64,000 nucleotides of DNA, taken from the IMG/VR virus record IMGVR_UViG_3300017752_000002; one strand, given 5' to 3'. This stretch comes from a virus. Numbering within the stretch: the stretch's first letter is position 1; the number at the start of each line of letters is the position of its first letter. Of the stretch, positions 1 through 64,000 are shown piece after piece. Both the position numbers and the translations under genes were made by a program. The notes beneath the pieces are model-generated. The model searched no databases, was not told where the DNA came from, and saw only the letters and a list, made by a program, of their open reading frames with translations.

Positions 1-3000
1 TTAAAAGCTGGTGCACCTTTACCAACTGGTGCTATAAAAGTCACATACAGACATTTCTCATATTCTGGTTCAGGAAACTTCTTCTCAGTTGATTCTTATT
101 CAGGTATTAACTATGAAGATATTCCTTCATTCGAATATCAAGATGCTACTGGTCAAAAAGTCACAATCGACTTACATGATGTTGTAGATTATAGACCAGT
201 AATTTCAGGTGCTAATACTTTTACACCAGAACTACCGAAGATTGGTACAGACTTAACAACTCCTGTAGCATTTTATGTTGGTAGAAAAGATAAACTATCT
301 ATATCCTCTACAGGAAAAATTCAAATAGTAAGTGGGCAACCATCTGAATATCCGCAAGAGCCAGAAGATCCAAAACAAGGATTGGTGCTTGCTAGTATGG
401 ATATACCACCTTATACTAAAAATGTTTCTGATATAAAAATATTCCAAAGAGATAATAGAAGATATACCATGAGAGATATTGGTAGTCTTGAAAAAAGAAT
501 TAAGAATTTAGAATATTATACTTCTTTATCGCTACTAGAAAAAGACACTAAATCAACAGCAATTAAAGATGCTACTACTGGCTTAGATAGATTTAAAAAT
601 GGTTTTGTAGTTGATGACTTTACAGGTCATGGTGTAGGTAATGTTAAATCGCCTGACTATAATGTTTCTGTTGATGCGAAAAACAGAACACTACGACCAG
701 CACACTTTACAGATGTATTAACAGTTATAGAAAATATTTCAAACACTACTCAAAGAACAACAAGAGGTTATACTAAAACTGGAGATTTAATCACACTACC
801 TTATACTGAGTCAAGTTTAGTTAGCAATCCTAATGCTACTAGATCTCTTGATGTAAACCCTTATAAGATTGGTGCTTATAAAGTAGAAGTACAATTATTC
901 CCAGAGTCAAGTATCTGGAAAGATACAGATAGACGACCAGACTTAACAGTTCAAGATGATAATAACACAGATGCGATTAGATTCTTAGCTGAGCAAACAG
1001 GAGTAGTAGGAACTGAATGGAATGAATGGGCAAACAACTGGACTGGTTCTTCTTCATCTACTACAACATCTTCTAGCAGAATTGGTAATACTATAAGTGT
1101 GTTTCAAAATACTGTCACCACTGAAACAGGAAACAGAACAAGAGGTGGTACAAGAACATCTATAACCACATCAACCAACTCACAAAACTATGGTGATAAA
1201 GTTGTTGATATGACATACATCCCTTACATTAAGGATGAAGTTGTAAATATTGACGCAAGAAATGCTAAACCTAATTCACAATATTTTGTGTTTATTGATG
1301 GTGAGCGAGTTGATACCAGTTATGTAAAACCTGCTGACATATTTAAAGTCACACAAGTTGCTGGTTCAACTACACCTATTTTAGATCCAGGACTTTTAGA
1401 TGCTGGCTTACTAGCTGACGATCCATTTCGTGCTTACAATGGTAAAATTGTAAACGCATTTAACTTCGGTGATGTAATTAAAAATGCTGACCACACTGCT
1501 ACTAGGATTGATACAATAAATCATATTACTTCAGCAGATGGTGCAACAAGTTTCACTATGACAGTTCAAGATGCTACTGGTTTAAATCCAGGACATCATG
1601 TTTTCTTATATAACTTGAACGCAACAAGAGGAACTGACGCAACTAACAACAGAGGTATAGAACAAAATATTACTTCTACTATCCCAACTATTGGTACCAA
1701 TCACTCAAAACAATTAAACAGAAAATATTTTAAGATTACTGCAGTTTCAGGAACTACTATTACTCTATCAGCACTTGATGGTTCTAATATCGCAGCATTC
1801 GATTCTTATGCGAGAGCTTCAGCTTATACTGGAACTGATGGTGGTAAATTACAAAGACTTACTGCTTCAGGAATTATATCTTATGCTGGTGTAAAAGATT
1901 CAGCTACAGTAAGAGATGTTCATATAACAAATATTAAAAATGGTTTTGCTATCGGTGAAAATGTCACTGGTACTGCCGATATTGGATTAGGTGCGAAAAA
2001 TACACTTACTCTAACAGAAATAAATGGTTCTTCAATATCAACTGCTGCTCCAACAATGAAAGCTACAGGAGGAACTATTACTTCTGATAAAGAAGGATCT
2101 TTAAATGCTGTGCTTTATATTCCTGCTGGTAGATATAGAACTGGAGAAAGAAGCATAAAACTTTCTGATAATATTTCTAATACTGATGCTGACTTCGATT
2201 CGTTTGGTTCAGCATTATTTACTGCTAATGGTATGCAGTTAGCAAAAGAAAGAACTGTTGTCTCTTCAAGAAATTTAAGTTTCGTTGAAGATAGATTATT
2301 CCAATCACAACCTATTCGAAGATCTTCTGTTTCTAACAGATTAGTTCAACAATTTAATGTTGGTGGTCACGATCCACTCGCTCAAACTTTCGTTGTTCAA
2401 TCTGATGGTGGTGCATTTGTTACATCTGTTGACTTATACTTTAAGCAAGCAGGTGAAAGACCAGTCTATGTAGAAATTAGAACTACTGATAACGAAGTAC
2501 CTTCTACAAAGATTGTTCCTTTCTCACAAGTTATATTACAACCAGCTGATATTAATACCAGCACTAATGGATCTGTAGCAACAACTTTCACATTCCCATC
2601 ACCAATTTATTTACAAGAGAATGAAACTTATGCTCTAGTTGTAAAAGTTGATGAGCCAGGATGTGAAGCATATATTTCTGAATTAGGTGGAACTGATTTA
2701 CTTACTGAAAATATTGTAGGTATTCAACCACTAACTGGTTCACTATACTTATCGCAAAACTCTAGAGAGTTTGAAATTAATCCACTGTTAGATCTTAAGT
2801 TTGATTTAAAACAAGCATCGTTTACTGAAAACACAAATGGTACAGTACAACTAAAAGCAAACCCTGCTGAAACTGTAAGACTTAACAAAGATCCTTTCCA
2901 GTTTACTACTAATTCTGAATTGGTAAGAGTACATCAAAAAAATCATGGTTTCGCTGCAGGCGATATCGTAATAATTGATGGAGTTGCTGATGGATTATAT

Positions 3001-4764
3001 GGAGCAAACTCTATAACTAATGGTGCAAGTCAAGATTTATTAAATGGTGCTCACACTATACAAACAAATGGACTACAAAAAGATTCTTATGTAATTGACT
3101 TAGAAACAGTTGATGCAAATAATAACGATATATTAGATGGAGCAGTTTCTGACTTTATTACTGGTAGATATGGTGGCTCAATAGTAGATGCTTCAAGGCA
3201 ACTTACTGCTGATGCTTTGTATTTCAAAACTGAAGATTTAGATTTTGATGACACAGAATTATCTTACACTATAAATTCTACAGACACTAGCGGAACTGCT
3301 AGTGGTAATAAAACTATTGTTCCTAATGCTACATATAATTTTGATAGTAGGAAAGTAATTAAGTCTTTTGAAAACCAAACAACTGTTTCAACGACACCAC
3401 TAATTAAAACTCCGACACTAACATTTGATGCTACCATAAGTACAACAAATAAAAATGTTTCACCTGTAATTGATTTACAAAAACTTGGTGGATATGCGAT
3501 TACGAATTTAGTTGACCAGTCATCAACTGCTATAAATGTCCCAGAGATTGACCAGAAAAAATTAATTAATACTGGAGATATTGGTTTAGCATTATCAACT
3601 TCCTCGGGAACTGGTACTGTGAGTACAACTTCTGCTAGTCCTACTGTGACTGGTTCAGGAACTGCCTTTACAACCCAAGTCTCAGTTGGCGACACATTAA
3701 CAACATCTGCTGGTGCATTAGGTAGAGTAAGAACTGTAGGAAGTGACACAAGTATAACACTATGTGATAACACTGCTCAAGTTTCTACTGGGGCAACTTT
3801 CCAAATTACTTCTGACCCAGTAATTACATTTAAACATGGAGCAAAAGCTGTAGAGTCAAATGTAGATGCGATTGATAATCTACTTGATAATGTTACAGCA
3901 GGAAGTCAGTTATACTTAACTAACATACACCCAGAATTAAATGGTGCTATCGATGTAGAGTCTGTTATTGTAAGCTCAAGCACACTACCATTCGGTGGTA
4001 ATCAAGAGCTCGATAAAACTACTATAAATAAAACAGCGAACTTTAGTTTTAATGAAACTAACGATATCAAATTAGATGTCGCTCAAAACTTTACTGAGCA
4101 AAAAGCAGGATTTACTATTACATCACAAACAAGTTCAATTAATGTCACAGCTTCTGGTGCAGTTGATGGTAAATTAATTGCTGGTGATATATTAGTTATC
4201 GAAGATGCTGATGGTGTAGGGTCTCTTTCTACTGTTGGTGGTGTACAAGTATTTAATAAAACTATTCTTGGTACAGTTGCATCAGTAAATGGTACGAACA
4301 TAGCATTGGCTGCAAACGCAACTGCTGCACTTACTGCTAAGAATGTAGTTATAAGAAAAGATATATCAGCTTCTACTTGGAACTTCTCTGCTATGGAAGA
4401 GTTTGTTGCTGATACTGCTCCAGTTGGTGCTACTAATTTAGCAAACTATATAACTAGAACTCTAGAATTAACTAATCCAGCTGACGCATTAAATATTACA
4501 TTCGATGCTAATGTACCGAAGTCAACAAATTTACAAGTTTTCTATAAAGCATTCTCTGGTGATACAAATCCTGATACTTTAAATTGGATAGATTCTGGAT
4601 TTACTGTATCATCTAAAGATGCAGTTGATGTATTTACTGAAAGGAATATAACTGTAAGCGATATCCCTGAATTTACAAAGGTTGTTGTTAAGATTGTTAT
4701 GAAATCTACTGATACAATCTCTGTACCAAAAGTTCAGGCATTCCGATTAATTTGTCATAGCTAG
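1..4764 (+). CDS. Large virion structural protein (VrlC-like/DUF4815-type), 5'-truncated
   Basis: Frame is open from base 1 into the 382..4764 ORF. T/S/G-rich, with the IKRLEYYTSLSLLE and DPLAQTF...VTSVDLYF style motifs typical of this family in marine T4-likes. Confidence 0.75.
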   Translation, partial: LKAGAPLPTGAIKVTYRHFSYSGSGNFFSVDSYSGINYEDIPSFEYQDATGQKVTIDLHDVVDYRPVISGANTFTPELPKIGTDLTTPVAFYVGRKDKLSISSTGKIQIVSGQPSEYPQEPEDPKQGLVLASMDIPPYTKNVSDIKIFQRDNRRYTMRDIGSLEKRIKNLEYYTSLSLLEKDTKSTAIKDATTGLDRFKNGFVVDDFTGHGVGNVKSPDYNVSVDAKNRTLRPAHFTDVLTVIENISNTTQRTTRGYTKTGDLITLPYTESSLVSNPNATRSLDVNPYKIGAYKVEVQLFPESSIWKDTDRRPDLTVQDDNNTDAIRFLAEQTGVVGTEWNEWANNWTGSSSSTTTSSSRIGNTISVFQNTVTTETGNRTRGGTRTSITTSTNSQNYGDKVVDMTYIPYIKDEVVNIDARNAKPNSQYFVFIDGERVDTSYVKPADIFKVTQVAGSTTPILDPGLLDAGLLADDPFRAYNGKIVNAFNFGDVIKNADHTATRIDTINHITSADGATSFTMTVQDATGLNPGHHVFLYNLNATRGTDATNNRGIEQNITSTIPTIGTNHSKQLNRKYFKITAVSGTTITLSALDGSNIAAFDSYARASAYTGTDGGKLQRLTASGIISYAGVKDSATVRDVHITNIKNGFAIGENVTGTADIGLGAKNTLTLTEINGSSISTAAPTMKATGGTITSDKEGSLNAVLYIPAGRYRTGERSIKLSDNISNTDADFDSFGSALFTANGMQLAKERTVVSSRNLSFVEDRLFQSQPIRRSSVSNRLVQQFNVGGHDPLAQTFVVQSDGGAFVTSVDLYFKQAGERPVYVEIRTTDNEVPSTKIVPFSQVILQPADINTSTNGSVATTFTFPSPIYLQENETYALVVKVDEPGCEAYISELGGTDLLTENIVGIQPLTGSLYLSQNSREFEINPLLDLKFDLKQASFTENTNGTVQLKANPAETVRLNKDPFQFTTNSELVRVHQKNHGFAAGDIVIIDGVADGLYGANSITNGASQDLLNGAHTIQTNGLQKDSYVIDLETVDANNNDILDGAVSDFITGRYGGSIVDASRQLTADALYFKTEDLDFDDTELSYTINSTDTSGTASGNKTIVPNATYNFDSRKVIKSFENQTTVSTTPLIKTPTLTFDATISTTNKNVSPVIDLQKLGGYAITNLVDQSSTAINVPEIDQKKLINTGDIGLALSTSSGTGTVSTTSASPTVTGSGTAFTTQVSVGDTLTTSAGALGRVRTVGSDTSITLCDNTAQVSTGATFQITSDPVITFKHGAKAVESNVDAIDNLLDNVTAGSQLYLTNIHPELNGAIDVESVIVSSSTLPFGGNQELDKTTINKTANFSFNETNDIKLDVAQNFTEQKAGFTITSQTSSINVTASGAVDGKLIAGDILVIEDADGVGSLSTVGGVQVFNKTILGTVASVNGTNIALAANATAALTAKNVVIRKDISASTWNFSAMEEFVADTAPVGATNLANYITRTLELTNPADALNITFDANVPKSTNLQVFYKAFSGDTNPDTLNWIDSGFTVSSKDAVDVFTERNITVSDIPEFTKVVVKIVMKSTDTISVPKVQAFRLICHS

Positions 4765-11800: not shown

Positions 11801-14297
11801 TCCAAGTGCTACGACCTTTACTCTAAGTTCAGAGTTCCAGATTCCTAACAGGTTAATAACATTTGATGGTTCTAGTAAAGTAAACAGTGGTACAGATAAA
11901 ATTACACTAGGAACACAATCACCATTCCTTCCGCATAACTTATATCCTGGAGAGCAGGTCACTTATTCTAATGGTGGTAATACTGATATCGGTGTATTTA
12001 CTGATGTATCTCAACTTTATGTTATAGCAAATAACTCTATTGATATTCAGTTAGCATCTTCTTATGCTTCTGCTATCGCAGGAACTGCTCTTAACTTAAC
12101 AGCAACTTCTGGTACTCATACCCTTACATCTAACTCGCTAGTTAAGATGACAAAAGCTGATGGTAATGTAGATTTCGCTAATGGCGGAAATATGGTCACT
12201 GGTACGACTACTACATTCTTAAAAGATTATAAGAGATTCGATAAGATTTACATTATCGTGAATGACTTAATCAGAGCATTTACTGTTGACGCAGTTATGA
12301 CTGATGAGAAAATGAGAATACAAGAAACATTCCCAGGAGCTGGTACTTCTGTTGAATACTTTAAAATTACTCAGTTATCATTACGACCTGATGGATTCGC
12401 ACTACATAAATCGTTTGATGGTGGTGTAGATATTACTGCGGGAACTTCGCCTAATAGTAAAATTGTTAGACAATCTCGTAAGTACTTTAGATATCAGTCT
12501 GGTAAAGGTATTCAAAACTCATTCGCGATTAACTTCTCGCCAGCAAAAGTTTTATCTTCACTAACTTATGCTTCAAGTGGTAATGTTGTTACAGCAATTA
12601 CTCAGGAGCCACATAACTTAGTGGTCGGAGATAGGATTACTGTTGAAGGTGCAGAAGTGACACTAGGAGAAAACTTATATCTTGGTACATTCCAAGTAGC
12701 AAGTGTTCCTAACGCAACAACTTATACTTATGTTGCTGCTGGTACTATTACTCAAACAAAAGCTGCAGGATTCCCAGAATATTACAGAGAATCTTGGAAC
12801 GACTCGTTCGTAAGAGCTGGTATGTTTGATGACCAGAATGGTTTCTTCTATGAGTACGATGGTCAAAAACTATATTGTGTAAGACGATCTTCTACTCTAC
12901 AGATTTCAGGTAAAGTAAACACTACTGCTAACTCTCAGGTTGTGACAGGTACGACTACTTCGTTCACTACTCAGTTGGCTGCAGGCGACAAGTGTTCAAT
13001 TAGGGGACAATCTTATCAGGTTGTTGCTGTTGACTCTGACCAAAGGATGATTATCCAACCTGCATATAAAGGTATATCTTCTACCAATGTTAAAATTACT
13101 AAAACAGTGGATATTAAAGTAGCACAGGAAAACTGGAATGTTGACCCATGTGATGGATTAGGTGATACAGGATTTAACTTGAATGTACATAAAATTCAAA
13201 TGGGATATGCTGACTATTCTTGGTATGGTGCTGGTAAAATTAGATTTGGTTTCAAAGATAGAAATGGTCATGTTCACTATAACCACGAATTTATTCACAA
13301 TAACAGAATTAACGAATCATACTTCCGTTCAGGAAACTTGCCAGGACGATATGAGATTGAGAATGGAAACGCTCCATCCTCTGCTCCTACCTTGTTCCAC
13401 TTTGGTACATCTATAATTATGGATGGTACTTTCGATGACGATAAGGCATACTTGTTCTCGGCTAATAGTAAACCAATGGTATTTAAAGCAGGTTCTACAA
13501 CAACCTTTACTTCTGATGCAGTATCAACTTTCGATCTAGTGACTCTAGATAATAAGAGGGTGTATGTTTATGCAGTACCTTGTTCAGAGTCTGAAGCACA
13601 AACAGTGACAGTGGGTCAGTTAATTAAAGACGCTGAAGGAAGAATACCTGCTGATGCTCTAGCTTATGTCACTCAGGTGATTGTAGATGGGTCTAACTCA
13701 AAAGTATTTACTTCTTATCCTGCTACTTCTAATGCACCAGAAACTGCTACTTATCCAAACATAACATCTGGTGTCACTATGACAATTGGTGAGAATGCTT
13801 ATGGTGGTGGCTCTGTTGATATGACAAGACCACACCCTCTAATCTCTATTAGATTGGCACCTTCAGTTGACTCAGGTTTAACAGGTGCGATTGGTGAGAA
13901 AGAAGTTATCAACAGAATGATATTGTCACTAAACAACGCAGGTGTGACAACTAACAAAGACTTAACAGCATTCTTTATCTTGAATGGTTTACCATCTAAG
14001 CTAGATTATACTAATGTTCAAAACCCTGCTTTATCGCAACTTATCTCACATGATACAGGTGATATCGTTCAACAAGGTACAGTGGTGTTCTCACAAGCTG
14101 TGTCAACTGGTTCATTGAACATTGACTTGACTGCTTTGATTGATATGGGTAATAGTATATTGGGTGGTGACTCAGTATTCCCAGCTGGTCCAGACTTGAT
14201 GACATTAGCAATACAGGCGAAGGATACTTCGACAATTACTGCTTCGTCACCATTTATCGTATCTGGTAAATTATCATGGAAAGAGTCGCAAACATAA
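8802..14297 (+). CDS. Very large virion structural/fibre protein (1831 aa)
   Basis: KLRVSNPENLIDTDFEYGLQ and VRQSRKYFRYQSGKG motifs of large marine T4-like virion proteins; T/S/G-rich. Confidence 0.75.
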   Translation: MAKKLIATGYTINAAQNQITVPGIIQPVRLLLITDINNNTILYNFADPATGLANFAYNYTADTTTFTTTLDLSANGVENSHGLQIFYETDFSRQGFEEAMLDPVNKLRVSNPENLIDTDFEYGLQSSKWETLQTVLNIPTIYSQAGDVPLEQLSSITTTANSKQVKVTTTANSGLSLGDPVLVQGTTLNAADGFFLVSGLTSQLEFFYEMDNAAESTATISGSYTSVIPAKFFEGSNLNIDLTSTAIETDGANPSIMTVTTAQTHGLKAGTRVYLRQTVGPKNLRIADPTANGGNAPDGAPWVDTRATITTTTTVDATTAIGGGGAQEFPVVTWDWEGTYNLYLAASMINTGSDRITWTNHGFTDNASLIFQTQIRGQTNGGLVDGTVYYVNVVDANTIELYSDYGTLGSRMNLTSFDFTRGHPRLTLVYKIEGNNGTQRFTAFYKRNLVTGRAFQNAQATQNTTNTQSFNFSITTSGYTPIKATLTRIAYAGNLNDSDETVAVSIQARNYLGLGSNNYGVTVGGVGSSNGNLYPNADVTRCIYQQGSNFYLTTSYTPTSSVIETDKAGSVTTDYQLTFYATTDELPTSMNTAHSGADLASGNNNFGLGGSQGSKLFAFTGRSSGGSSGTSADNYANSNDPARFGTGILRQTGAATASSVSGIITVNQSDANAEDYSSNSTHVYYGFANELTSYRNTIYAQAHNFIDGNSAVINVNSYSTTNRFEFVDSSGNNVPIAQAQFNATITVISADYFRLQIAQSPNTDDISAFPESFTVATATPNTTYNSIYISNHKLTGGNLSSYSTTGTVIGGLTGGANYTLQYLNDSRLIIKDPNLSSGSGSATTGAFGSTSNNASQSFTVDIQTPLGITPSTATITQVQYRGDFRNTNEYVDLAFSDGDTYRIGSEGGQDTNQFLIDSAFGSKNISNLLTGSPKSINVTVSPSSQVNFSVQGMSNWWEIRFAVTAASGDVILSSAGTGEQLFELAANEGAYDGVYGIASVPSATTFTLSSEFQIPNRLITFDGSSKVNSGTDKITLGTQSPFLPHNLYPGEQVTYSNGGNTDIGVFTDVSQLYVIANNSIDIQLASSYASAIAGTALNLTATSGTHTLTSNSLVKMTKADGNVDFANGGNMVTGTTTTFLKDYKRFDKIYIIVNDLIRAFTVDAVMTDEKMRIQETFPGAGTSVEYFKITQLSLRPDGFALHKSFDGGVDITAGTSPNSKIVRQSRKYFRYQSGKGIQNSFAINFSPAKVLSSLTYASSGNVVTAITQEPHNLVVGDRITVEGAEVTLGENLYLGTFQVASVPNATTYTYVAAGTITQTKAAGFPEYYRESWNDSFVRAGMFDDQNGFFYEYDGQKLYCVRRSSTLQISGKVNTTANSQVVTGTTTSFTTQLAAGDKCSIRGQSYQVVAVDSDQRMIIQPAYKGISSTNVKITKTVDIKVAQENWNVDPCDGLGDTGFNLNVHKIQMGYADYSWYGAGKIRFGFKDRNGHVHYNHEFIHNNRINESYFRSGNLPGRYEIENGNAPSSAPTLFHFGTSIIMDGTFDDDKAYLFSANSKPMVFKAGSTTTFTSDAVSTFDLVTLDNKRVYVYAVPCSESEAQTVTVGQLIKDAEGRIPADALAYVTQVIVDGSNSKVFTSYPATSNAPETATYPNITSGVTMTIGENAYGGGSVDMTRPHPLISIRLAPSVDSGLTGAIGEKEVINRMILSLNNAGVTTNKDLTAFFILNGLPSKLDYTNVQNPALSQLISHDTGDIVQQGTVVFSQAVSTGSLNIDLTALIDMGNSILGGDSVFPAGPDLMTLAIQAKDTSTITASSPFIVSGKLSWKESQT

Positions 14298-14309: not shown

Positions 14310-14921
14310 ATGGCATATCTCGGCAGAGAAATACAGTTTGGCAGTTATGAGAAGCAAACCTTTGCTACCAATGGGGCAGATACAAGTTTCACATTAAACT
14401 TCCCAGCACCTAGAGAAGAAGCACTTCTAGTAGTAAAAGATGGTGTGGTTCTAAAACCTGGAACTGGATATACTTTATCTAATGGTGGTGTTACAATTAA
14501 TATTACAGGTGGAGCATTAGCATCTTCTGTAGATTTATATTGTGTATTCTTAGGAAAAGAACTTACCATACAAAATGTTGGTGACAATTCAGTCACCCAT
14601 TCTAAACTTACTACACCTATACGACAGTCAGTAAAAACAGATTTTACTGTAATCAATAGTACTCAAACCCTTGTAGCTTCTAGGCATTATTTTGTTGACA
14701 CTACAGCAGGTGTTGTGACTGTCACCTTTCCTGCATCTCCATCTCTTGGAGATACTGTATATGTTTCTGATGCTTATGGGACTTGGGATACAAATAATTG
14801 TACTGTAAATCCTAATAACAATTCTATTAATGGCTCATCAGGAAACGCAACGCTCTCATCAGAGTACGATTCAAAAGAATACATTTTTATTGGCGGAACA
14901 GCTGGTTGGCGAACTGTTTAA
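14310..14921 (+). CDS. Tail fibre/baseplate-associated protein
   Basis: MAYLG start, NGADTSFTL motif, C-terminal YFVDTTAGVVTVTFPASPSLGDTV domain common in phage fibres. Confidence 0.7.
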   Translation: MAYLGREIQFGSYEKQTFATNGADTSFTLNFPAPREEALLVVKDGVVLKPGTGYTLSNGGVTINITGGALASSVDLYCVFLGKELTIQNVGDNSVTHSKLTTPIRQSVKTDFTVINSTQTLVASRHYFVDTTAGVVTVTFPASPSLGDTVYVSDAYGTWDTNNCTVNPNNNSINGSSGNATLSSEYDSKEYIFIGGTAGWRTV

Positions 14922-15597: not shown

Positions 15598-17433
15598 ATG
15601 GCAGCAATTGTTAGAATAAAAAGATCGGCGACTTCGGGTAATCCCACCACACTTGGTGCAGGAGAACTCGCATATTCAGGTCTTACCGATAATGGATCCA
15701 ATGGTGGTGATAGACTATATGTTGGATTCGGTACAGAAACTGCAGGTAATGCAGCAAACCACTTCGTAATAGGTGGTAAATATTTTACAGATGAAGTAGA
15801 TGCAGCAACGACTGCTAATACAGCAAGTACGATTGTAAAACGAAATGGAAGTGGAAACTTCTCAGCAGGAACTATTACTGCTACACTAAGTGGTAATGCT
15901 ACATCAGCAACTTCTGCTGCAGCTTGGACTACTGGAAGAACTATAACTATCGATGGCGATGTAGATGGTTCTGCTTCAGGTGTTGATGGTTCAGGTGATG
16001 TTACAATTACTACTGCCTTAGATGCTACAGGAGTCTCCGCAGGATCTTATGGTAGTACAACTGCTATCCCAATTATTACTGTTGATGCTAAGGGTCGTAT
16101 TACTGCTGCAAGTACTGGCTCAATATCAACTTCATTTACACTAACTGATGGATCTAATTCAGAAACTATCGCAGGTGGCAACACATTAACTGTCACAGCT
16201 GGTGAAGGTATTGATGCAGTAGTTGGTTCAACTGATACTCTAACTATTTCAGCAGAAGATGCTACCTCTTCTAATAAAGGTATTGCTTCTTTCGGTGGAG
16301 ACTTTAGTGTATCAAGTGGTGCTGTATCACTAGCTAATAACTCAGTCACAATCGGATCTGACGCAGTAGCACTAGGTGGTTCAAGAACAGATATAAATGG
16401 ATTAACAAGTTTAGATGTAGATAATATGACATTAGATGCTAATGCTATTTCTACAACAGATACAAATGGAAATTTAGAACTATCGCCAAATGGTACTGGT
16501 ACTGTTGTTGTTCCAGCTTCATACGAAGCTAGAGCAGGTTTCTCAAGTCAATCGCTAGTAAATAAATCATATGTTGATTCGGTCACTTCAGGTTTATCAG
16601 TTAAGTCGCCTGTTAAAGTGGCTACTACTGGCAACCTTGCTGCAACTTATAATAATGGAGCAGGTACATTAACAGCAAACTCTAACTTCGCATTATCAGT
16701 TGATGGTGTCACAGTTTCAGTAAACGATAGAGTATTAGTTAAAGACCAAAGTACTGCTGCTCAAAATGGTTTTTATAAAGTCACAGCTACTGGTTCAGGA
16801 TCTGCTGCTTTCGTTTTAACCAGAACTCCTGACGCAGATGCTGCTTCAGAATTAGTTGCTGGTGCATTCGCTTTCGTTGAAGAAGGAACTGCTAACGCAG
16901 ATAATGGTTATGTACTATCAACTGATGGAGCTGTCACACTAGGTACGACTGCTATTAACTTTGAGCAGTTTTCAGGTGCTGGGCAAATTAGTGCTGGTGA
17001 TGGTTTAGCAAAAACAGGAAACTCATTATCTTTAAATGTAGATAATAGTTCAATAGAAATAAATGCTGATACTGCTAGAGTGAAAGCATTAGGTGTTACC
17101 AATGCTATGTTAGCAGGAAGTATTACCAATGCAAAATTATCAAACTCAAGTGTCACAATTAATAGTAATTCGCTCGCATTAGGTGCTTCTTTAACACTAG
17201 ATTCAGACGACATAGGCGAAGGATCTACAAACGAATACTTTACTAATACCAGAGCAAGAGGTGCACTAAGTGTGACATCTTCAACTGGTTTAACATATAA
17301 TAATAGTACAGGTGTTCTAGCAGGTCTTGACGCAACAGCATCGGTGAAAGGTATAGCATCTTTCGCTTCAGCAAACTTTACAGTCACAAGTGGAGCAGTA
17401 GCAATAACTGGTGTTGATGGCGGAACATACTAA
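15598..17433 (+). CDS. Tail fibre protein
   Basis: IKRS...GELAY N-terminus; VKVATTGN...DRVLVKDQSTAAQNGFY motif typical of phage fibres. Confidence 0.8.
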   Translation: MAAIVRIKRSATSGNPTTLGAGELAYSGLTDNGSNGGDRLYVGFGTETAGNAANHFVIGGKYFTDEVDAATTANTASTIVKRNGSGNFSAGTITATLSGNATSATSAAAWTTGRTITIDGDVDGSASGVDGSGDVTITTALDATGVSAGSYGSTTAIPIITVDAKGRITAASTGSISTSFTLTDGSNSETIAGGNTLTVTAGEGIDAVVGSTDTLTISAEDATSSNKGIASFGGDFSVSSGAVSLANNSVTIGSDAVALGGSRTDINGLTSLDVDNMTLDANAISTTDTNGNLELSPNGTGTVVVPASYEARAGFSSQSLVNKSYVDSVTSGLSVKSPVKVATTGNLAATYNNGAGTLTANSNFALSVDGVTVSVNDRVLVKDQSTAAQNGFYKVTATGSGSAAFVLTRTPDADAASELVAGAFAFVEEGTANADNGYVLSTDGAVTLGTTAINFEQFSGAGQISAGDGLAKTGNSLSLNVDNSSIEINADTARVKALGVTNAMLAGSITNAKLSNSSVTINSNSLALGASLTLDSDDIGEGSTNEYFTNTRARGALSVTSSTGLTYNNSTGVLAGLDATASVKGIASFASANFTVTSGAVAITGVDGGTY

Positions 17434-17483: not shown

Positions 17484-19517
17484 ATGTCCACTGTAATAAA
17501 AGTAAAAAGATCTGAAGTCGCATCAAGTGTTCCAAGCACTTCTGATTTAGCTGTCGGCGAAATTGCAGTAAATACCCAAGATAAAAAGATTTATGTTCGT
17601 GCTTCAGGTGGTGTAGTAGAAGTTGCGAATGTTGTAGCAGGTGGTGCTTCAGGAGATATTACCGAAGTTCTTACTGCAACTGGTTCAGGTTTAACAGGTG
17701 GCTCTACTTCTGGTTCAGCAAATCTAGCAATTAATGTAGACGATTCTTCTCTACAAATATCAGGAAATACAGTACAAGTAAAAGCAAGTGGTGTCACGAA
17801 TGCCATGCTTGCTAATTCAGGTGTGACTATAAACTCACAGTCATTATCATTAGGTGGTACACTAACATTAGACTCAGATAATATTGGTGAAGGATCTACT
17901 AATCTTTACTACTCTAATGAACGAGTTGATGATAGAATATCAGCTCTAGTTCAAAATGGTACAGGTCTTTCTTGGACTTACGATGACAACGCAAACTCAT
18001 TTACACCTGCTGTCACACTTTCGCCTTTTGATACTGATAATTTATCAGAAGGATCTACCAACAAATACTTTAGCAATACATTAGCAAATAGTGCAATAGA
18101 TGCACGAGTCACAAAAACTTTTGTTGATAATTTAAATGTAGTTGCTGCAAGTGCTACAGGTAATGCTGCCACTGCTACAGCTTTGGCTAGTGCTCAAAAT
18201 TTTAGTTTGACTGGAGATGTCACTGCTTCAGCAGTTTCATTTGATGGTCAGGGTGCAGTTCAACTTACTACCGATATTGCTGCCAACTCTATTACTCCTA
18301 CTGAATTAAATGTCACAGATGCTGCAGGTGCATTACAATCTGATGGAGCAGGAAACTTATCATTCGCTCCAGCTACTGCATCATTTTCTGCGATAGGAGA
18401 ACATGTATTACCATCAGTTGATGATACTTACGATCTAGGATCCTCTACTAAAAAATGGAGAAACTTATATGTTGGTGGCGATACTATATTCCTAGACGAC
18501 GCTAAAATTATGAAACAGGGTTCATCATTAATGATGAATCCAGGAGTATCTAACTCTATATCGTCAGTCACAGTAAATAACGATGGTGCTGGTTATTTAG
18601 AACAACCAAACTTGTCATTCCCATTACCAAACACTTCAGGTGTAGATGTTGTCACTATGACTAATGCTGGTGGTGGATATACTGGTCCACCAGCAGTCAC
18701 GATAGATGCACCAAGTACGACTCCTGGAGTTCAAGCAACAGGAACAGCTGTAATGGTTGATGATGGCACTGGAAATAATACATTCGCTGTAAGTGGTGTT
18801 ACAATTAATAATGGTGGGTCAGGTTATCCGACTGCACCAAATATCACGATTGCTGCAACACCGAATGCTGGAGGAGGTGCTGTTCAGGCAACTGCTAATA
18901 CTACAGTTTCGCCAGCAACTAATGGTGGAAGTATAGCAGGAGCGTATGCTACTATTGATGTAAATACTGGAAAAGTATTAACTGTGGTAATAACCGATGC
19001 TGGTGGGGGATATACAACTGTTCCTACTATAACTGTAGATAGTCCAAATAAAGATATTACATTTAATACAACTGTATATAATGATTATAGTACAGGAAAT
19101 AATTACTACACATTATCAGGTGGCATAAACCAACAATTGGATATTATACAAGGTCAAACTTATACCTTTGACTTATCATCAGCTACACACTCTGGGCACT
19201 TATTTGCTTTGAGTTCAACTCAAGATGGTATTCATGGTGGTGGTACAAAATTAACATCAGGTGTGACTTATACTGGTACACAAGGCACGACAGGTGCTAA
19301 AATGGTACTGGTGGTAGATGCTAACACACCGACTACACTATACCCTTATTGTGAAACACACTCTGGTATGGGTGGTACAGCATCATTAACAAAGATTTCT
19401 AGTGGTACGACTGCTGTTTTAACTCCTGTTCTAAGTAGTTATAACTCAGCATTAGACAAGAAATTTGCTATGGAACCATTTTCAATAGCAATGTCTATCG
19501 CACTAGGGGGATCATAA
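17484..19517 (+). CDS. Tail fibre protein with C-terminal cupredoxin-like motif and SIALG tag
   Basis: VIKVKRS...GEIAVN N-terminus, GxGY repeats, GQTYTFD...H...YCETHSGM. Confidence 0.75.
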   Translation: MSTVIKVKRSEVASSVPSTSDLAVGEIAVNTQDKKIYVRASGGVVEVANVVAGGASGDITEVLTATGSGLTGGSTSGSANLAINVDDSSLQISGNTVQVKASGVTNAMLANSGVTINSQSLSLGGTLTLDSDNIGEGSTNLYYSNERVDDRISALVQNGTGLSWTYDDNANSFTPAVTLSPFDTDNLSEGSTNKYFSNTLANSAIDARVTKTFVDNLNVVAASATGNAATATALASAQNFSLTGDVTASAVSFDGQGAVQLTTDIAANSITPTELNVTDAAGALQSDGAGNLSFAPATASFSAIGEHVLPSVDDTYDLGSSTKKWRNLYVGGDTIFLDDAKIMKQGSSLMMNPGVSNSISSVTVNNDGAGYLEQPNLSFPLPNTSGVDVVTMTNAGGGYTGPPAVTIDAPSTTPGVQATGTAVMVDDGTGNNTFAVSGVTINNGGSGYPTAPNITIAATPNAGGGAVQATANTTVSPATNGGSIAGAYATIDVNTGKVLTVVITDAGGGYTTVPTITVDSPNKDITFNTTVYNDYSTGNNYYTLSGGINQQLDIIQGQTYTFDLSSATHSGHLFALSSTQDGIHGGGTKLTSGVTYTGTQGTTGAKMVLVVDANTPTTLYPYCETHSGMGGTASLTKISSGTTAVLTPVLSSYNSALDKKFAMEPFSIAMSIALGGS

Positions 19518-26496: not shown

Positions 26497-27090
26497 ATGG
26501 CTAATATTGCTGATTTTAAAGCTAACATGACTGGTGGCGGAGCTCGTCCTAATCAGTTTCGTGTAGATTTGGCTTTCCCTTCTTATGTCACTGGTGGAAG
26601 AGTTGCTGCTGTACAAGGACAGTTTCTTTGCAAAGCTGCACAATTACCAGCTAGTACATTAGAAAACTTGCCAATCCAATATAGAGGTCGTGCTGTAAAC
26701 TTTGCTGCTGAGCGTACTTTCGCTCCTTGGACAGTCACAGTTTATAACGACACTGACTTCGGTATTAGAAACGCAATCGAAAGATGGCAAAATGGTATTC
26801 AGGAATATGCGACTACAGAAGGTCGTACTAATCCGAATGATTACCAAGCTGACTTACTTGTAACACAACTAGATAGAAATGGTGCTGGAGTAAAACAATA
26901 TAAATTTGTTGATGCTTACCCACTGTCTATCGGTATTGTTCAGTTGGATTATGACACTACAAATGCTATTGAAACATTTGATGTTGAATTCCAATACAAC
27001 TTCTTTACAAGTAATACAAGCGAAAGTGGTGGATTAGGAGTTAATATATCAATCGATACTCCGATTGGTTCATTCCCAATCAACATTTAA
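26497..27090 (+). CDS. gp19: Tail tube protein gp19
   Basis: GGARPNQF, FLCKAAQLPAS, RTFAPWTVTVYND motifs. Confidence 0.95.
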   Translation: MANIADFKANMTGGGARPNQFRVDLAFPSYVTGGRVAAVQGQFLCKAAQLPASTLENLPIQYRGRAVNFAAERTFAPWTVTVYNDTDFGIRNAIERWQNGIQEYATTEGRTNPNDYQADLLVTQLDRNGAGVKQYKFVDAYPLSIGIVQLDYDTTNAIETFDVEFQYNFFTSNTSESGGLGVNISIDTPIGSFPINI

Positions 27091-58401: not shown

Positions 58402-59793
58402 ATGCGTATTGAAGACACTATATTAAATAATCTTATTCATAATGATGAGTACTGCCGAAAAGTAGTACCATTTATTAAAGCTGAATATTTCCAAGATAGA
58501 ACTGAAAAGATAATATTTGAAGAGTTTGATAAACTGTTCTTACAGTACAACAACATTCCTAATCCTGATATGATTGCTTCTGAAGTTTTTGAACGAAAAG
58601 ATTTATTTGAAAACGAGCATGCTCTTATTCAGGAAAAAATACAGCAGATGTCTGAGCCAAAATCTATTAATGATAATTGGCTATATGATAAAACTGAGGA
58701 ATGGTGTAAAGAACGAGCAGTACATAATACTATTATGGACTCTATCAAAATTATCGATGGTCGTGATAAAGTACATACCAAAGATGCGATTCCTAAAATG
58801 ATGCAGGATGCTTTGGGTGTTTGCTTTGATGACTCTGTCGGTCATGATTATCTTGAAGATGCTGATGATAGATTTCAATTTTATCATAAGATTGAAGAAA
58901 AAATTAAATTTGATATTGATTTATTGAATACTATTACTCGTGGTGGTTTGAGTAAAAAAACTCTTAACATCGCCATGGCTGGTACTGGTGTTGGTAAATC
59001 TTTGTTTATGTGTCATCATGCATCTAGTGTATTGAACGAGGGTATGAATGTTCTTTATGTCACTATGGAGATGGCTGAAGAAAAGATATCTGAAAGGATT
59101 GACGCAAACTTATTGAACTTGGGTATGGATGAAATTAAAGTTGTTGACCATGATATATTCAGTAAGAGAATTAATAAAGTAAAAGAAAACAGTAAAGGTA
59201 AACTGATTGTAAAAGAATATCCTACAGGTGCTGCTCATGCAGGTCACTTCAGAGCATTACTTGAAGAACTTAAAATGAAAAAAGGTTTCAAAGCAGATAT
59301 TATATTTATCGATTATCTAAATATCTGTGCTTCGCAAAGACTAAGGATGGGTGCCAATGTAAATACTTATTCTTATATCAAATCTATTGCTGAAGAACTA
59401 AGAGGTCTGGCAGTTGAATATAACTGTCCTATCGTATCAGCTACTCAAACTACAAGAGGTGGATATAATAATACTGATGTTGGTCTTGAAGATACTTCGG
59501 AGTCTTTCGGTTTACCAGCTACTGCCGATCTAATGTTTGCGATTATTGCTAGTGAAGAACTGGATAATATGGGACAATGGATGATTAAACAACTTAAAAA
59601 CAGATATTCAGATCCTAACTATTATAAGAGATTTGTAGTTGGGGTTGATAAAAACAAGATGAGATTGTACAATGTTGAAGAATCTGCCCAAAGTAATATA
59701 ATGGATAGTGGGCAGGAAGAAAAAGATATCGGAGCAGTATTTGATAAAACCGATGCAGGTGAACGATTAAGTATGGAAGGATTTAAGGTATGA
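58402..59793 (+). CDS. gp41: Replicative helicase gp41
   Basis: AGTGVGKS, IDYLNI, SATQTTR, SESFGLPATAD, KQLKNRY. Confidence 0.97.
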   Translation: MRIEDTILNNLIHNDEYCRKVVPFIKAEYFQDRTEKIIFEEFDKLFLQYNNIPNPDMIASEVFERKDLFENEHALIQEKIQQMSEPKSINDNWLYDKTEEWCKERAVHNTIMDSIKIIDGRDKVHTKDAIPKMMQDALGVCFDDSVGHDYLEDADDRFQFYHKIEEKIKFDIDLLNTITRGGLSKKTLNIAMAGTGVGKSLFMCHHASSVLNEGMNVLYVTMEMAEEKISERIDANLLNLGMDEIKVVDHDIFSKRINKVKENSKGKLIVKEYPTGAAHAGHFRALLEELKMKKGFKADIIFIDYLNICASQRLRMGANVNTYSYIKSIAEELRGLAVEYNCPIVSATQTTRGGYNNTDVGLEDTSESFGLPATADLMFAIIASEELDNMGQWMIKQLKNRYSDPNYYKRFVVGVDKNKMRLYNVEESAQSNIMDSGQEEKDIGAVFDKTDAGERLSMEGFKV

Positions 59794-61091
59794 CAAAAAC
59801 AATAACAGCACCTAAGAAATTTGACTGTGAAAATATATTGGGTAGATTTGGTGACGAAAGTCATTATGAGTTGTTAGTTGATTATGATTGTGATTTTTAT
59901 GCTCCTACACCTATGGGTGAGGAAAACTCTGAAGAAAATATTATATTCAAGTTTAGAAAGAACTTCTTTTCTCAAGAACAACAAGACGAAGCATATAAAG
60001 GACTTCGTGAAGCAGCAGGTGCCACTGAAAATCGTGGACTCGCAGCAGGTATAGAAAAAACCAAATCGCTTGGCTCTAGAGATTGGGTCACTAATTACCA
60101 TGAAGAATTATTGGCATATTTTCAAAACCCATCTACAACACTAGATGGTTCTGACCCAGTAGAAAATATTAAAGCTAAGTGGAAAGGTAGAGAGAATATT
60201 GCTGATGACAGTAGAGGTAATGTATGGTTGGCTCTTAAAGTTGCTGAGGAAGCATTTGAGTTTGAAGCATGGGTTGAAGAGATAAGGTTATTACCCAAAG
60301 ATGAAATGGTAGCTGAAGCGAATAGAGTTAGAGATAAACTTACATCTACAACTTCTTATGCTAATCAGGTTTTCTCAGGTATCGCAGGTTATTTTGACAG
60401 ATATCCTCGTATTCCTTTTGGTCGTCCTACAACTTACACTCGTGATAATTATGATAAGTTTGAGATGGCACTTCCTTTCTTACAACAACTTAGTAAAGGA
60501 TTTGAAGATCTATTACCTGTCAGATATGGTAAGCAGAATGAAGCATGTGGTAAATTAGATTCTAAGTTTATTATTCCAGGAACTGTATTTACTACTGCTA
60601 CTGTAAACAAAACTTTTAGAACAGCTTACCATAGAGATGCTGGTGATTTGAATGAAGGTTTTTCTAATCTTACTGTTGTATCTAATAATGGTAAATACTC
60701 AGGTGGTCATTTAATACTTCCTGAATATAAGGTTGCTGTAAACATTCGTCCTGGAGATTTATTACTAATTAATAATCATGACGGAATACATGGTAATACA
60801 CCTATGGTTATGGAATCTGATGATGCTGAAAGAATATCATTCGTGTGTTATTTTAGGGAAAAAATGTTAGAACTTGGATCTTGGGATTATGAAAGGGCAA
60901 GGGAAGATTATGTCACTGCTCGTAGAACTAATAAAGAACACCCTTTACAAAGAAAATTATGGAATGGTATCAGTCCTGGAATGTGGGATGAAAGTGAGTG
61001 GTACGATTTCTTAGAAAATAAATTAGGTATAGATGTATTGACTAAGTATCATCCCGACAGTCAGTCATCAAGTTTGGAGGAATTTTTCTAA
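59790..61091 (+). CDS. TET/JBP-family Fe(II)/2-oxoglutarate dioxygenase
   Basis: FTTATVNKTFRTAYHRDAGDL (HxD), GGHLILPEY, GDLLL..H..IHGNT (distal H), ERISFVCYFRE (2OG Arg). Confidence 0.88.
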   Translation: MTKTITAPKKFDCENILGRFGDESHYELLVDYDCDFYAPTPMGEENSEENIIFKFRKNFFSQEQQDEAYKGLREAAGATENRGLAAGIEKTKSLGSRDWVTNYHEELLAYFQNPSTTLDGSDPVENIKAKWKGRENIADDSRGNVWLALKVAEEAFEFEAWVEEIRLLPKDEMVAEANRVRDKLTSTTSYANQVFSGIAGYFDRYPRIPFGRPTTYTRDNYDKFEMALPFLQQLSKGFEDLLPVRYGKQNEACGKLDSKFIIPGTVFTTATVNKTFRTAYHRDAGDLNEGFSNLTVVSNNGKYSGGHLILPEYKVAVNIRPGDLLLINNHDGIHGNTPMVMESDDAERISFVCYFREKMLELGSWDYERAREDYVTARRTNKEHPLQRKLWNGISPGMWDESEWYDFLENKLGIDVLTKYHPDSQSSSLEEFF

Positions 61092-61915
61092 TGGACATTT
61101 TAAAAGATTATCAAATCTGTATCCCATCATATAAGCGACACGAAACTGTGATGAATAAAACCATCGAGGTATTAAAGTCATATAATATTGACCCAGCTAG
61201 GATTAAAGTATTCGTGAATGATGAGGAGCCAGGAGAGTATGACAATTATGTAGATACTTTATCTAAAACTGAATACACAAAAAATATTGAAGTCGTAAAA
61301 GGTGTACCAACTATTGGTAAGCAAAGAAACTTCATAGAGAAGTATTATCCTGAAGGAACTTATGTCATGTCTTTTGATGATGATATTGAAGAAGTACAAG
61401 TTAAGGATGGCGAGCAAAACTTACTGCGTGTTGAAGACTTTGAAAAAGAAGTTATACTTAGAGGTTTCCAAGCATGTGAAGATAACGATGCTAAGACTTT
61501 CGGTATATATGCAGCATCAAATGCGTACTTTATGAAGCATCGTACATATACGAAACTTTGTTATATTATCGCTAGTATGTATGGATTTATAGCTGACCAC
61601 GATCCTGAATTAGATCGTCATACTAATCATGGTGAAGATTATGAGTATAGTATGCGTCAATATAGAAAACATGGTGTTGTCGTAAGACTTGATGATATTA
61701 CTGTAAAATCTAATTACTATAAAGAGGTTGGTGGCTTACAAACATTTAGAACTGCTGAAAATATTAAGTCAAGTATTGAGTGGATTGCTGAGAACTTTGA
61801 CGATTTATGTACGATGTATATTCGTAAGACTACTGGGCATGCTGAATTAAAATTGCGTGATACATCTGGTGGTAAATATGATAAAAATTTAAGCACATTA
61901 GAAGGTTTCTTTTGA
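61091..61915 (+). CDS. TET-associated GT-A glycosyltransferase (TAGT/GREB1-like)
   Basis: ICIPSYKR, KQRNFI, MSFDDDI, GEDYE, GGLQ motifs; start overlaps the TET stop. Confidence 0.82.
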   Translation: MDILKDYQICIPSYKRHETVMNKTIEVLKSYNIDPARIKVFVNDEEPGEYDNYVDTLSKTEYTKNIEVVKGVPTIGKQRNFIEKYYPEGTYVMSFDDDIEEVQVKDGEQNLLRVEDFEKEVILRGFQACEDNDAKTFGIYAASNAYFMKHRTYTKLCYIIASMYGFIADHDPELDRHTNHGEDYEYSMRQYRKHGVVVRLDDITVKSNYYKEVGGLQTFRTAENIKSSIEWIAENFDDLCTMYIRKTTGHAELKLRDTSGGKYDKNLSTLEGFF

Positions 61916-62043
61916 ACGAATTAAAACCATTTATCTTAGGTATAGCAATAGCAATGTTATTTGTTGGTCTTATAATATGGATAAGTCCATATGGTGGTCA
62001 GCATGAGCCATTAGATATATTAATTAGAATCTATCAACAATGA
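61912..62043 (+). CDS. Small membrane protein (TTG start, 43 aa)
   Basis: LNELKPFILGIAIAMLFVGLIIWISPYGGQHEPLDILIRIYQQ; overlaps both neighbours by 4 nt. Confidence 0.5.
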   Translation: MNELKPFILGIAIAMLFVGLIIWISPYGGQHEPLDILIRIYQQ

Positions 62044-62459
62044 GAACTGGTATAACTGCTTCAACTTTCGACCTGCTTCATGCTGGTCATGTACAAATGT
62101 TAAGGGATGCCAAATCTCAATGCGATTATTTAATAGCATGTTTACAGATAGATCCTAGTATAGATAGAAAAGATAAAAATGCTCCAATACAAACTGTCGT
62201 TGAAAGATACACACAATTAAAAGCAGTAAAATATGTTGATGAGATTATACCATATTCAAGCGAAAAAGATTTAGAAGATATCTTAGAATTATATGAGATT
62301 GATGTTAGAATACTAGGCGAGGAATATAGAGAAAAAGATTTTACTGGTAAGGATATATGTAAGAGAAGAGATATAGAATTATATTTTAATAAGAGGGAAC
62401 ATAGGTTTTCCTCCACAGATTTGAGAGAAAGGGTGAGTGAGCAATGGTCTGGAAAGTAG
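62040..62459 (+). CDS. Cytidylyltransferase (TagD/glycerol-3-phosphate CT-like)
   Basis: STFDLLHAGH (HxGH), ER...LKAVKYVDEI, FSSTDLR. Confidence 0.9.
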   Translation: MRTGITASTFDLLHAGHVQMLRDAKSQCDYLIACLQIDPSIDRKDKNAPIQTVVERYTQLKAVKYVDEIIPYSSEKDLEDILELYEIDVRILGEEYREKDFTGKDICKRRDIELYFNKREHRFSSTDLRERVSEQWSGK

Positions 62460-62758
62460 CAAAGAAAGACGAAAGATATACTGTATTAGATTATGAAGGA
62501 TTGAATGTTCTCGTACCTTCTCTCACAATTTTACAACCTGGATGTGAAACTAATGGTCATGTACACAGTGACCCACAACAGGAAGAAGTTTATGTATTTA
62601 CAACTGGCACTGGACTCATGGAAGTTGAAGATGAAACGATCTCTGTAAAAGCTGGAGACATCATCCCAGTGCCAGCCAATAAATTTCATAAAGTCTATAA
62701 TAATGATGTAGTGCCATTACACTTTGCTGCTGTATTCAATGGTGCTAGATATGAGTAA
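62444..62758 (+). CDS. Cupin-domain protein
   Basis: HVH....EEVY..TGTG...V..E...VKAGDII.VP...FH motif. Confidence 0.88.
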   Translation: MVWKVAKKDERYTVLDYEGLNVLVPSLTILQPGCETNGHVHSDPQQEEVYVFTTGTGLMEVEDETISVKAGDIIPVPANKFHKVYNNDVVPLHFAAVFNGARYE

Positions 62759-63387: not shown

Positions 63388-64000
63388 ATGTCTAAATTTG
63401 AAAACGACCTAGATCTTGTAAAAGCCAAACAGAATGCAGTGAGAGCAAAAGCTACACTGGAAAAACGATTTGCTTCAGATCCTAAAATACAACAAATACT
63501 TGATAAAATAACACCCAATAAACAAGTTATGTGTTATATCTTTTCTAAGAGTATAGCATTTCGTATGGGTCGTGGTAGTATAAAATCTATCGCAGGATTT
63601 CCTGCTGGACTTAAAAATAGTTTTACAGGTATTAATACTGCCAAATCAACTTTCAATCCTTTAAAGATACCAGCAGAAACTAAAAGCTATTCTAAATCAG
63701 ATACTGTTTTATTACTTGCTTTACATTATTTAATTAATTTTTCTGATAGAGTAAAAAGCGAAACTGATAAAACCGAAGCAGTTGAAAGTGAGCAAGTTAT
63801 GACAGTACAAGCTGACTTAAAAAAATTAATTAGAGAATATGGTATAGTGAGATTACAAGTAGGAAAAGAAACTTTTGATGTAGATAATTTTAAACAAGTT
63901 CCTGGAAGACCGAAAGCAGATATGGTGTTCGAATATAAAGGCAGACCAAATATTTTTGTATCACATAAAAAAGGAACTAAACCTGCTGCCTTCCAACAGT
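63388..64000 (+). CDS. 3'-truncated ORF with PD-(D/E)xK-like nuclease motif
   Basis: Open to window end; PGRPKADMVF....IFVSHKKG....FQQ. Confidence 0.6.
   Translation, partial: MSKFENDLDLVKAKQNAVRAKATLEKRFASDPKIQQILDKITPNKQVMCYIFSKSIAFRMGRGSIKSIAGFPAGLKNSFTGINTAKSTFNPLKIPAETKSYSKSDTVLLLALHYLINFSDRVKSETDKTEAVESEQVMTVQADLKKLIREYGIVRLQVGKETFDVDNFKQVPGRPKADMVFEYKGRPNIFVSHKKGTKPAAFQQ

Follow-up and report, generated by a model that had tools for sequence, protein, structure and literature searches.

The word GTWAC (GTTAC or GTAAC; W is A or T, S is C or G) is nearly missing from a 64,000-nt stretch of the IMG/VR virus record IMGVR_UViG_3300017752_000002 (hereafter the window, meaning the whole stretch that was analysed), and our data support selection on the DNA word itself. 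We find that GTWAC is not a single signature but one of a purged set of at least 15 words, and that the depletion of GTWAC and of several other words weakens or vanishes when a T stands directly 5′ of the site. The window also encodes a TET/JBP-family dioxygenase. The account that we favour, and consider reasonably probable given these word statistics and predicted genes, is that T before G or C is hypermodified in this phage, and that nuclease sites outside the cover of this modification have been purged.

All long open reading frames (ORFs) of the window lie on the + strand. They are of T4 type, including genes for the large terminase, tail sheath, portal, gp46/gp47, DNA polymerase, gp41 helicase, UvsY, UvsW, clamp, clamp loader, RegA and UvsX, and the source is an uncultured marine T4-like myovirus. 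Its DNA polymerase is ~52% identical to those of Synechococcus T4-like cyanophages. A megablast search with 5.8 kb of the window against GenBank phages gave no DNA-level match to a cultured phage, and a search of IMG/VR for an exact 40-mer gave none either. In IMG/VR, the window falls in a tight clade from ocean metagenomes, with 87–99% polymerase identity, the next nearest sequence lying at 57%. We used the clade contigs G1–G4, the two longest of which are estimated to be 65% and 73% complete; G1 (116,941 bp) and G2 (131,091 bp) are two long contigs with ~83% DNA identity to the window. Counts are written as observed/expected (O/E). Unless stated otherwise, the null is a synonymous codon shuffle that keeps every protein and the codon usage of each gene; for the window, 300 shuffles were made, with synonymous codons permuted within each of 66 genes.

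Selection on the DNA word

The window holds exactly 12 GTWAC sites (9 GTTAC and 3 GTAAC; Table 1), versus 71 GTCAC and 65 GTGAC. Base composition predicts 133 GTWAC sites, a third-order Markov model 91, and codon shuffles 134.7 ± 7.4, with 112 in the lowest shuffle (z = −16.5, O/E 0.09). An earlier note on this DNA, made by eye, had counted about a dozen sites, four of them near positions 3892, 12587, 25235 and 32817, against some 130 expected. All four positions are among the 12, and the depletion stands under Markov and codon-shuffle controls alike.

Among all Val codons, 76% are GTW, versus 10/116 in Val-Thr pairs. This agrees with the note's remark that Val is mostly GTT or GTA but not before Thr; two of its three hand counts (9/9 and 18/19) are right, and the third, given as 7/8, should be 7/9. 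Codons that meet in other registers behave in the same manner: xGT|TAC is found in 0/34 cases and xGT|AAC in 2/55, with the same codon choices made at 27–35% elsewhere, and G|TTA|C in 0/14, versus 52% elsewhere. Each reading frame and each strand shows the loss of GTWAC. GTSAC is found 136 times, versus 64 expected in codon shuffles, and GTNAC as a whole 148 times, versus 198. The doubling of GTSAC arises solely because Val-Thr is forced into GTS-ACN; where synonyms exist (xGT|GAC, xGT|CAC, G|TCA|C), GTSAC is neutral. With O/E at 0.09 after shuffling and every frame depleted, enrichment of GTSAC alone does not account for the pattern.

One might instead ascribe the depletion to mutation bias or to codon-pair preference in translation, given that all genes lie on one strand, so that codon-pair effects could mimic avoidance, and that CpG has an O/E of 0.88. 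We regard this explanation as hardly credible. Words are depleted equally with their reverse complements (GTTAC 9, GTAAC 3; ACGG 12, CCGT 7), all three frames are affected, dinucleotides are at expectation, and outgroups of similar codon usage lack the depletion. Additionally, zero sites versus 113–226 expected, as seen for another word below, goes beyond anything that mutation or translation is known to cause. C-to-T decay at methylated sites is ruled out too, as it can yield neither the W-to-S recoding nor the excess of GTSAC.

The same depletion is evident in the relatives, with 10/210 GTWAC sites in G1 and 8/218 in G2. It is seen in every clade locus, but relatives whose polymerases are ≤50% identical lack it. 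G1 or G2 share only 2–3 of the 12 sites; at the others they read GTSAC or differ. When aligned Val codons (GTN) before AC are compared, C-to-G swaps in either direction number 15–17 and S-to-W changes 3–5; at other aligned Val codons, S-to-W changes number 81–93 and swaps within S 7–8. Few survivors are shared, and the swaps follow this pattern; therefore, new GTWAC sites arise and get removed. These data show that the depletion is maintained by ongoing selection across relatives that are ~17% diverged in DNA. The earlier note had proposed selection against GTWAC, and the strand symmetry, the involvement of all frames and the persistence in relatives with differing survivors bear this out.

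Other purged words

Among the purged words, ACGT is gone altogether, with 0/113 in the window, 0/226 in G1 and 0/219 in G2. The window also lacks ACSGT (0/64), CCGG (0/33), GGCC (0/26), TGATCA (0/16) and GTATAC (0/11), and has few copies of GCGC (2/24), TGATC/GATCA (7/113), AAGCTT (1/21), GTTAAC (1/12.5) and AGSCT (7/54). CGCG is missing from G1 (0/32) and G2 (0/27). Further purged palindromes include GCTAGC and GGTACC; TGAWTCA is purged as well (TGATTCA 4/59), as are the non-palindromic, G/C-rich words ACGCC, ACGGC, GAGGC and AGCCC. The earlier note had listed GTAC, GANTC, GTWWAC and GATC as occurring freely. This is right for the first three as classes (O/E 1.06, 0.95 and 0.91), but GATC stands at 0.67, its TGATC/GATCA forms are nearly gone, and the palindromes within GTWWAC, GTTAAC and GTATAC, have been eliminated. 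GATC without these flanks is enriched (O/E 1.36).

Some words differ between close relatives. ACTAGT is purged in the window only (3/20, versus 24/36 and 34/39 in the relatives) and TAGCTA in G2 only (0/50), and TGATC is relaxed in G2 (42/229). Outside the clade, many other marine T4-like phages also have little AGSCT compared with AGWCT (e.g. 2/43, 4/61, 5/62), and several marine T4-like outgroup loci are without any CCGG or GCGC, which suggests that some of the purged words are shared far outside the clade.

Palindromic words are typical of dimeric binders, and the earlier note had considered a DNA-binding system as the agent. GTWAC would then be the core of a site for a host or phage protein, such as a regulator or nucleoid protein, whose spurious binding would be harmful. 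This seems very improbable to us: five base pairs are too short for a specific regulator, GTWAC is purged along with more than 15 other restriction-like palindromes, and no positively selected GTWAC was seen, the 12 survivors lying inside genes and mostly differing between relatives.

A T directly 5′ of the site

GTWAC sites were sorted by the base directly 5′ on each strand and pooled over the window, G1 and G2. Without a 5′ T on either strand, the count is 0/253; with one 5′ T, it is 7/253; and with both (TGTWACA), it is 23/61 (0.38). Only T rescues the word: when both 5′ neighbours are A, C or G, the count is zero for every pair. Other words follow suit. For zero, one and two flanking T, the O/E is 0.09, 1.29 and 2.03 for GCWGC, 0.12, 1.02 and 2.45 for CCWGG, and 0.29, 0.93 and 1.68 for GGWCC; CTATAG is found at 0/37, 5/42 and 13/12. 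Runs of four G/C are missing between A..T flanks (0/54), reach 0.5–0.7 with one T-type flank, and stand at 157/80 between T..A flanks. Nearly all surviving runs of five lie between T..A flanks, and longer runs, of six or more, hardly occur. Three pentamers, GTWAC, ACSGT and AGSCT, are purged, but their counterparts with the other centre letters (GTSAC, ACWGT and AGWCT) are not; what the purged member of each pair lacks is an inner T-before-S step. Two other rules are ruled out: that GT on both strands protects (GTAC and GTSAC are not purged), and that each strand needs a modified T (either flank alone rescues GCTGC and CCTGG).

Further clade loci obey the flank rule, whereas other marine T4-like phages do not, either in 672 kb scored by raw fractions or in 285 kb scored with the shuffle control. 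As a positive control, we analysed Salmonella phage ViI (NC_015296, 1–50000), in which CCGG is found at 1/51, 57/49 and 16/11 for zero, one and two flanking T; GGCC and GGWCC show a flank effect in the same direction. The CCGG pattern of ViI is the genome footprint of its known TG/TC thymidine hypermodification. In the present clade, the T-linked rescue of sites is a statistical footprint only.

Site avoidance is common in lytic phages (PMC6286503), GTWAC is a methylated motif in marine microbes (PMC8919816), and several words are purged whatever the flank. It is thus conceivable that the genome simply avoids restriction sites, with no modification involved, and that the T flanks reflect flank preferences of the enzymes or longer true sites. 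We consider this improbable. Rescue is specific to T in at least six unrelated words, so that each of the enzymes concerned would need to disfavour a 5′ T; the same rule is found in ViI, with its known TG/TC modification, and is absent in relatives outside the clade; and the clade has a TET/JBP enzyme, with no methyltransferase found.

Candidate modification genes

In the window, the gene for the TET/JBP-family dioxygenase is followed by genes for a TET-associated glycosyltransferase (TAGT), a cytidylyltransferase-like protein and, in the same gene string, a small cupin (Table 1). The dioxygenase is a candidate maker of 5-hydroxymethyl-uracil on DNA, and the cytidylyltransferase-like protein possibly supplies the activated donor for the glycosyltransferase. 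Orthologues of TET that are 84–85% identical occur in all longer clade contigs, G1–G3 included. Behind TET, G1 and G2 carry a cassette with a P-loop nucleotide kinase instead of the glycosyltransferase string; that of G1 (59327–63527) comprises two unknown ORFs, an inositol-1-phosphate-synthase-like protein and P-loop nucleotide kinase3 (PF18751). Because the cassettes differ, the base decoration may differ as well, while the genome grammar stays the same. No C5, N6/N4 or D12 DNA methyltransferase was found in G1–G4, with the completeness given above. A search for other TET-bearing phages with a single TET protein as the query gave no matches; a query with an alignment of three TET sequences returned the same clade and two short contigs at 39% identity, and nothing else. 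A sequence search of the PDB with TET gave only spurious weak matches.

These genes are in line with earlier work. Phage TET/JBP enzymes that have no C5 methyltransferase gene beside them act on replicated DNA, oxidising its T, and phage T-dioxygenases, most of which have no C5 methyltransferase nearby, prefer NTC or NTG (PMC13229309). In phages ViI, M6 and phiW-14, hypermodified T goes together with restriction resistance tied to TG/TC, and such resistance also comes from a T just outside sites made of G/C only (PMC6449724). Similarly, a kinase for 5-hydroxymethyl-deoxyuridine (5hmdU) made SP8 DNA resistant, but only where sites had TG/TC in them (PMC7653180). Of all T in the window, 38.7% stand before G or C, close to the 43–48% of T that is modified in ViI and phiW-14 (PMC6449724), and we count this in support of a modification at T before G or C.

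How might these elements work together? In the account that we favour, the TET/JBP dioxygenase would make 5-hydroxymethyl-uracil on DNA at T directly before G or C, and the glycosyltransferase of the window, or the kinase-based cassette of its relatives, would then decorate it. The bulky modified T would block a sequence-specific endonuclease only when it lies inside the site or directly 5′ of it. Words unable to contain a T-before-G/C step would be purged from the genome, and tolerated copies of vulnerable words would have a T directly in front of them, on one strand or on both. Inside GTWAC, every T stands before A or T, so that the word could be covered only as TGTWACA; outside this context it would be eliminated, mostly through Val-Thr recoding from GTW-ACN to GTS-ACN. 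Because GTSAC carries a protected T on both strands, the nuclease would be specific for either GTWAC or GTNAC (MaeIII-type). Among restriction enzymes, MaeIII recognises GTNAC and Tsp45I recognises GTSAC. The earlier note had suspected that the phage's own modification fails to shield GTWAC. The presence of TET/JBP and TAGT genes and the flank rule fit this suggestion, except that the nuclease may recognise the wider word.

Several observations weigh against this account. First, ACGT, CCGG, GGCC, GTATAC and GTTAAC are missing whatever the flank, so that the shield would have to fail for the enzymes that cut these five words. Second, TGATC, TGATCA and TGAWTCA are purged though rich in T-before-S steps, the opposite of the rule. 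Third, A as well as T is favoured next to GTSAC; together with the neutrality of GTSAC where synonyms exist, this means that the data cannot separate GTNAC from GTWAC specificity. Fourth, the substrate of TET (T or 5-methylcytosine) is deduced solely from the missing methyltransferase, in searched relatives that are 65–73% complete. Fifth, the distribution of survivors does not fit: all 12 sites in the window lie in the structural-gene module, where 70% are expected, as do 8/8 in G2 (91749–116185), and the replication half of the window (32818–64000) has 0 GTWAC versus about 40 expected. Finally, the purged words, at least 15, are many for restriction-poor hosts, a point taken up in the next section.

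Possible hosts and the origin of the putative nucleases

The window carries genes for Hsp20, peptide deformylase and CobS, and a glutamine riboswitch upstream of a DUF4278-like ORF (Table 1). The region from 92 to 113 kb of G1 has an unusual range of auxiliary genes, with curli CsgG and CsgF, a FecR-like protein, a CHASE2 adenylate cyclase, FabF, FabG, an ACP-like protein, a fatty-acid desaturase, PTOX, cytochrome c, NifU, ThyX and MazG. The riboswitch and DUF4278 ORF, Hsp20, peptide deformylase and CobS, together with PTOX, desaturase and cytochrome c of G1, indicate a cyanophage-like lifestyle. psbA was not found in the four clade contigs.

It is also possible that the host lineage is not cyanobacterial. 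A scan of a genome collection for PTOX matched a single gammaproteobacterial metagenome-assembled genome, and the phage PTOX is 57–70% identical to PTOX in 14 of 31 marine gammaproteobacterial genomes (G005–G035). The genomes with PTOX are small (0.6–1.8 Mb), with 30–36% GC, and one of the 31 (G005) gives two strong matches to the glutamine riboswitch (69 and 64 bits) but lacks genes for a photosystem reaction centre. In this candidate lineage, we found no DUF4278, psbA or CsgG match and no depletion of GTWAC or of any other purged word; an N6/N4 methyltransferase is present in only 5/31 of the genomes. We did not adopt this lineage as the host. Trichodesmium, considered for its GC content, was dropped: one genome has two restriction-modification systems (PMC8262939), and there is no link to the phage. 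Picocyanobacteria carry 0–1 restriction systems per genome (PMC8262939). The earlier note had read the avoidance of GTWAC as a possible host fingerprint. With GTWAC one of at least 15 words, a candidate lineage that lacks the depletion and restriction-poor hosts, this suggestion is unconfirmed, and so is the assignment of the nuclease to the host.

A phage-encoded nuclease is a live rival. Nucleases of the phage itself, or of competing phages, may cut unmodified DNA, and the clade may purge those sites that its modification cannot cover. In T4, modified cytosine spares the phage's own DNA from its host-DNA-degrading nucleases. The candidate hosts are restriction-poor and their DNA is not depleted in the purged words, and the non-palindromic G/C-rich words listed above would be easier to explain by a low-specificity nuclease than by a large number of Type II systems. 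Close downstream of nrdB (ribonucleotide reductase small subunit), two short ORFs on, G1 encodes a 139-aa GIY-YIG nuclease of SegE/DenA type (89361–89780; PF19835, 133 bits), a candidate host-DNA-degrading nuclease; many ORFs, moreover, have no family match. On the other hand, no restriction-type nuclease family was seen in the window, whose unannotated ORFs were scanned with PHROGs and Pfam, or in 54 G1 ORFs. GTWAC, AAGCTT, GTATAC, GTTAAC, TGATCA, GCTAGC and GGTACC resemble classical Type II sites, and many enzymes would be needed to cut them. The differences between relatives in ACTAGT, TAGCTA and TGATC suit changing host repertoires at least as well. On balance, we judge a phage origin of the nucleases unlikely, though the strongest of the alternatives considered here; the favoured account would place the nucleases in the host population.

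Table 1. Features of the window with their positions. Relatives are clade contigs G1 and G2.
Feature	Position	Strand	Evidence or context	Remarks
GTWAC depletion, plus other purged words	1..64000		12 sites, O/E 0.09; codon-preserving shuffles, frame analysis	
GTTAC	2419..2423		TGTTACA (T 5′ on both strands)	Kept in G2, not aligned in G1
GTTAC	3892..3896		TGTTACA	No site in G1 or G2
GTTAC	12588..12592		TGTTACA	GTGAC in G1, GTCAC in G2
GTTAC	14490..14494		TGTTACA	No site in relatives
GTTAC	16000..16004		TGTTACA	GTCAC in G1 and G2
GTTAC	17095..17099		TGTTACC (T flank on one strand only)	Conserved in window, G1 and G2
GTTAC	18798..18802		TGTTACA	No site in relatives
GTAAC	25235..25239		GGTAACA (one flank)	Frame 1
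GTAAC	25598..25602		GGTAACA (one flank)	Frame 1
GTAAC	26860..26864		TGTAACA	Conserved in window, G1 and G2
GTTAC	31435..31439		TGTTACT (one flank)	GTGAC in relatives
GTTAC	32817..32821		AGTTACA (one flank)	GTCAC in relatives
Glutamine riboswitch	32906-33029		RF01739, 40.8 bits vs gathering score 35	Upstream of 70-aa ORF
70-aa ORF, DUF4278-like	33042-33254		25.2 bits, just under Pfam cut-off 25.3	
tRNA-Arg (anticodon TCT)	48298-48373			Single gene
TET/JBP-family 2OG-Fe(II) dioxygenase	59790..61091	+	Pfam PF12851, 73.1 bits vs cut-off 34.9	Candidate maker of 5-hydroxymethyl-uracil on DNA
TET-associated glycosyltransferase (TAGT)	61091..61915	+	Pfam PF20691, 45.6 bits vs cut-off 27.5	
Cytidylyltransferase-like protein	62040..62459	+	Pfam PF01467, 56.8 bits	Possible donor supply, inferred role
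Small cupin, same gene string	62444..62758	+	Pfam PF07883, 41.9 bits	Role inferred

Implications

We think the chances slightly better than even that this genome has co-evolved with a context-limited T hypermodification, with every restriction-type word beyond its reach purged, above all GTWAC. If so, the modification rule and the specificities of the nucleases that a phage meets become readable from the sequence. Such a list would cover specificities without a known enzyme, such as GTWAC and possibly ACSGT, and the approach would be usable for uncultured phages; the same test already picks out ViI. The footprint, a depletion that vanishes when T is directly 5′ of the site, is countable, and could serve as a screen for thymine hypermodification in metagenomic phages, one that would also yield the context rule of the modification without any chemistry. 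For uncultured marine microbes, it predicts nucleases specific for GTWAC or GTNAC, with ACSGT and AGSCT as further possibilities. A purged word, moreover, can be narrower than the sequence that the nuclease recognises. Our results also raise the question of who cuts 15 or more words in ocean hosts thought to be restriction-poor.

Comparison with known systems

The nearest known specificities to the purged word are those of MaeIII and Tsp45I and the methylated motifs GTWAC and GTNAC, reported from genomes in marine metagenomes, with no match among REBASE methyltransferase motifs at that time (Hiraoka et al. 2022, PMC8919816). No enzyme or host among these is linked to the window phage, and the text of that study does not state which organism carries the GTWAC motif.

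With respect to modification, the clade resembles ViI, M6 and phiW-14 in the TG/TC-linked resistance that we propose for it, with ~40–50% of T modified in those phages (Flodman et al. 2019, PMC6449724; Lee et al. 2018, PMC5889632). In these phages, however, unlike in the window clade, 5hmdU takes the place of T ahead of replication, and the context is determined by a DNA kinase. ThyX (encoded in G1) and a TET/JBP dioxygenase distinguish the window clade from the ViI group, so the hydroxymethyl group would here be made on DNA. We found no mention of a genome-wide flank footprint in ViI-type phages in Flodman et al. 2019 or Lee et al. 2018. The gene order, TET/JBP followed by a glycosyltransferase with no neighbouring C5 methyltransferase, is like that of the 5mYOX T-dioxygenases (O'Toole et al. 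2026, PMC13229309; Burke et al. 2021, PMC8256090). In contrast to those systems, the specificity that we deduce spans both TG and TC, and no ParB-type activator is seen near TET.

Finally, the clade can be compared with phages that avoid restriction sites. Avoidance is widespread among lytic phages; coliphages with a hydroxymethylase avoid 2.4% of host sites, whereas relatives without it avoid 55.8% (Rusinov et al. 2018, PMC6286503). As in that survey, the words concerned are short, mostly palindromic and Type II-like, they are nearly or fully gone from a lytic dsDNA phage, and their loss is strand-symmetric and proceeds mainly via synonymous changes. In the literature compared on avoidance and on T hypermodification, we found no description of a complementary split within one genome in the form of a flank grammar. 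The survey treats modification and avoidance as alternatives (PMC6286503), the usual view; here, they appear to be complementary and to share the work in one genome, with avoidance depending on the 5′ T.

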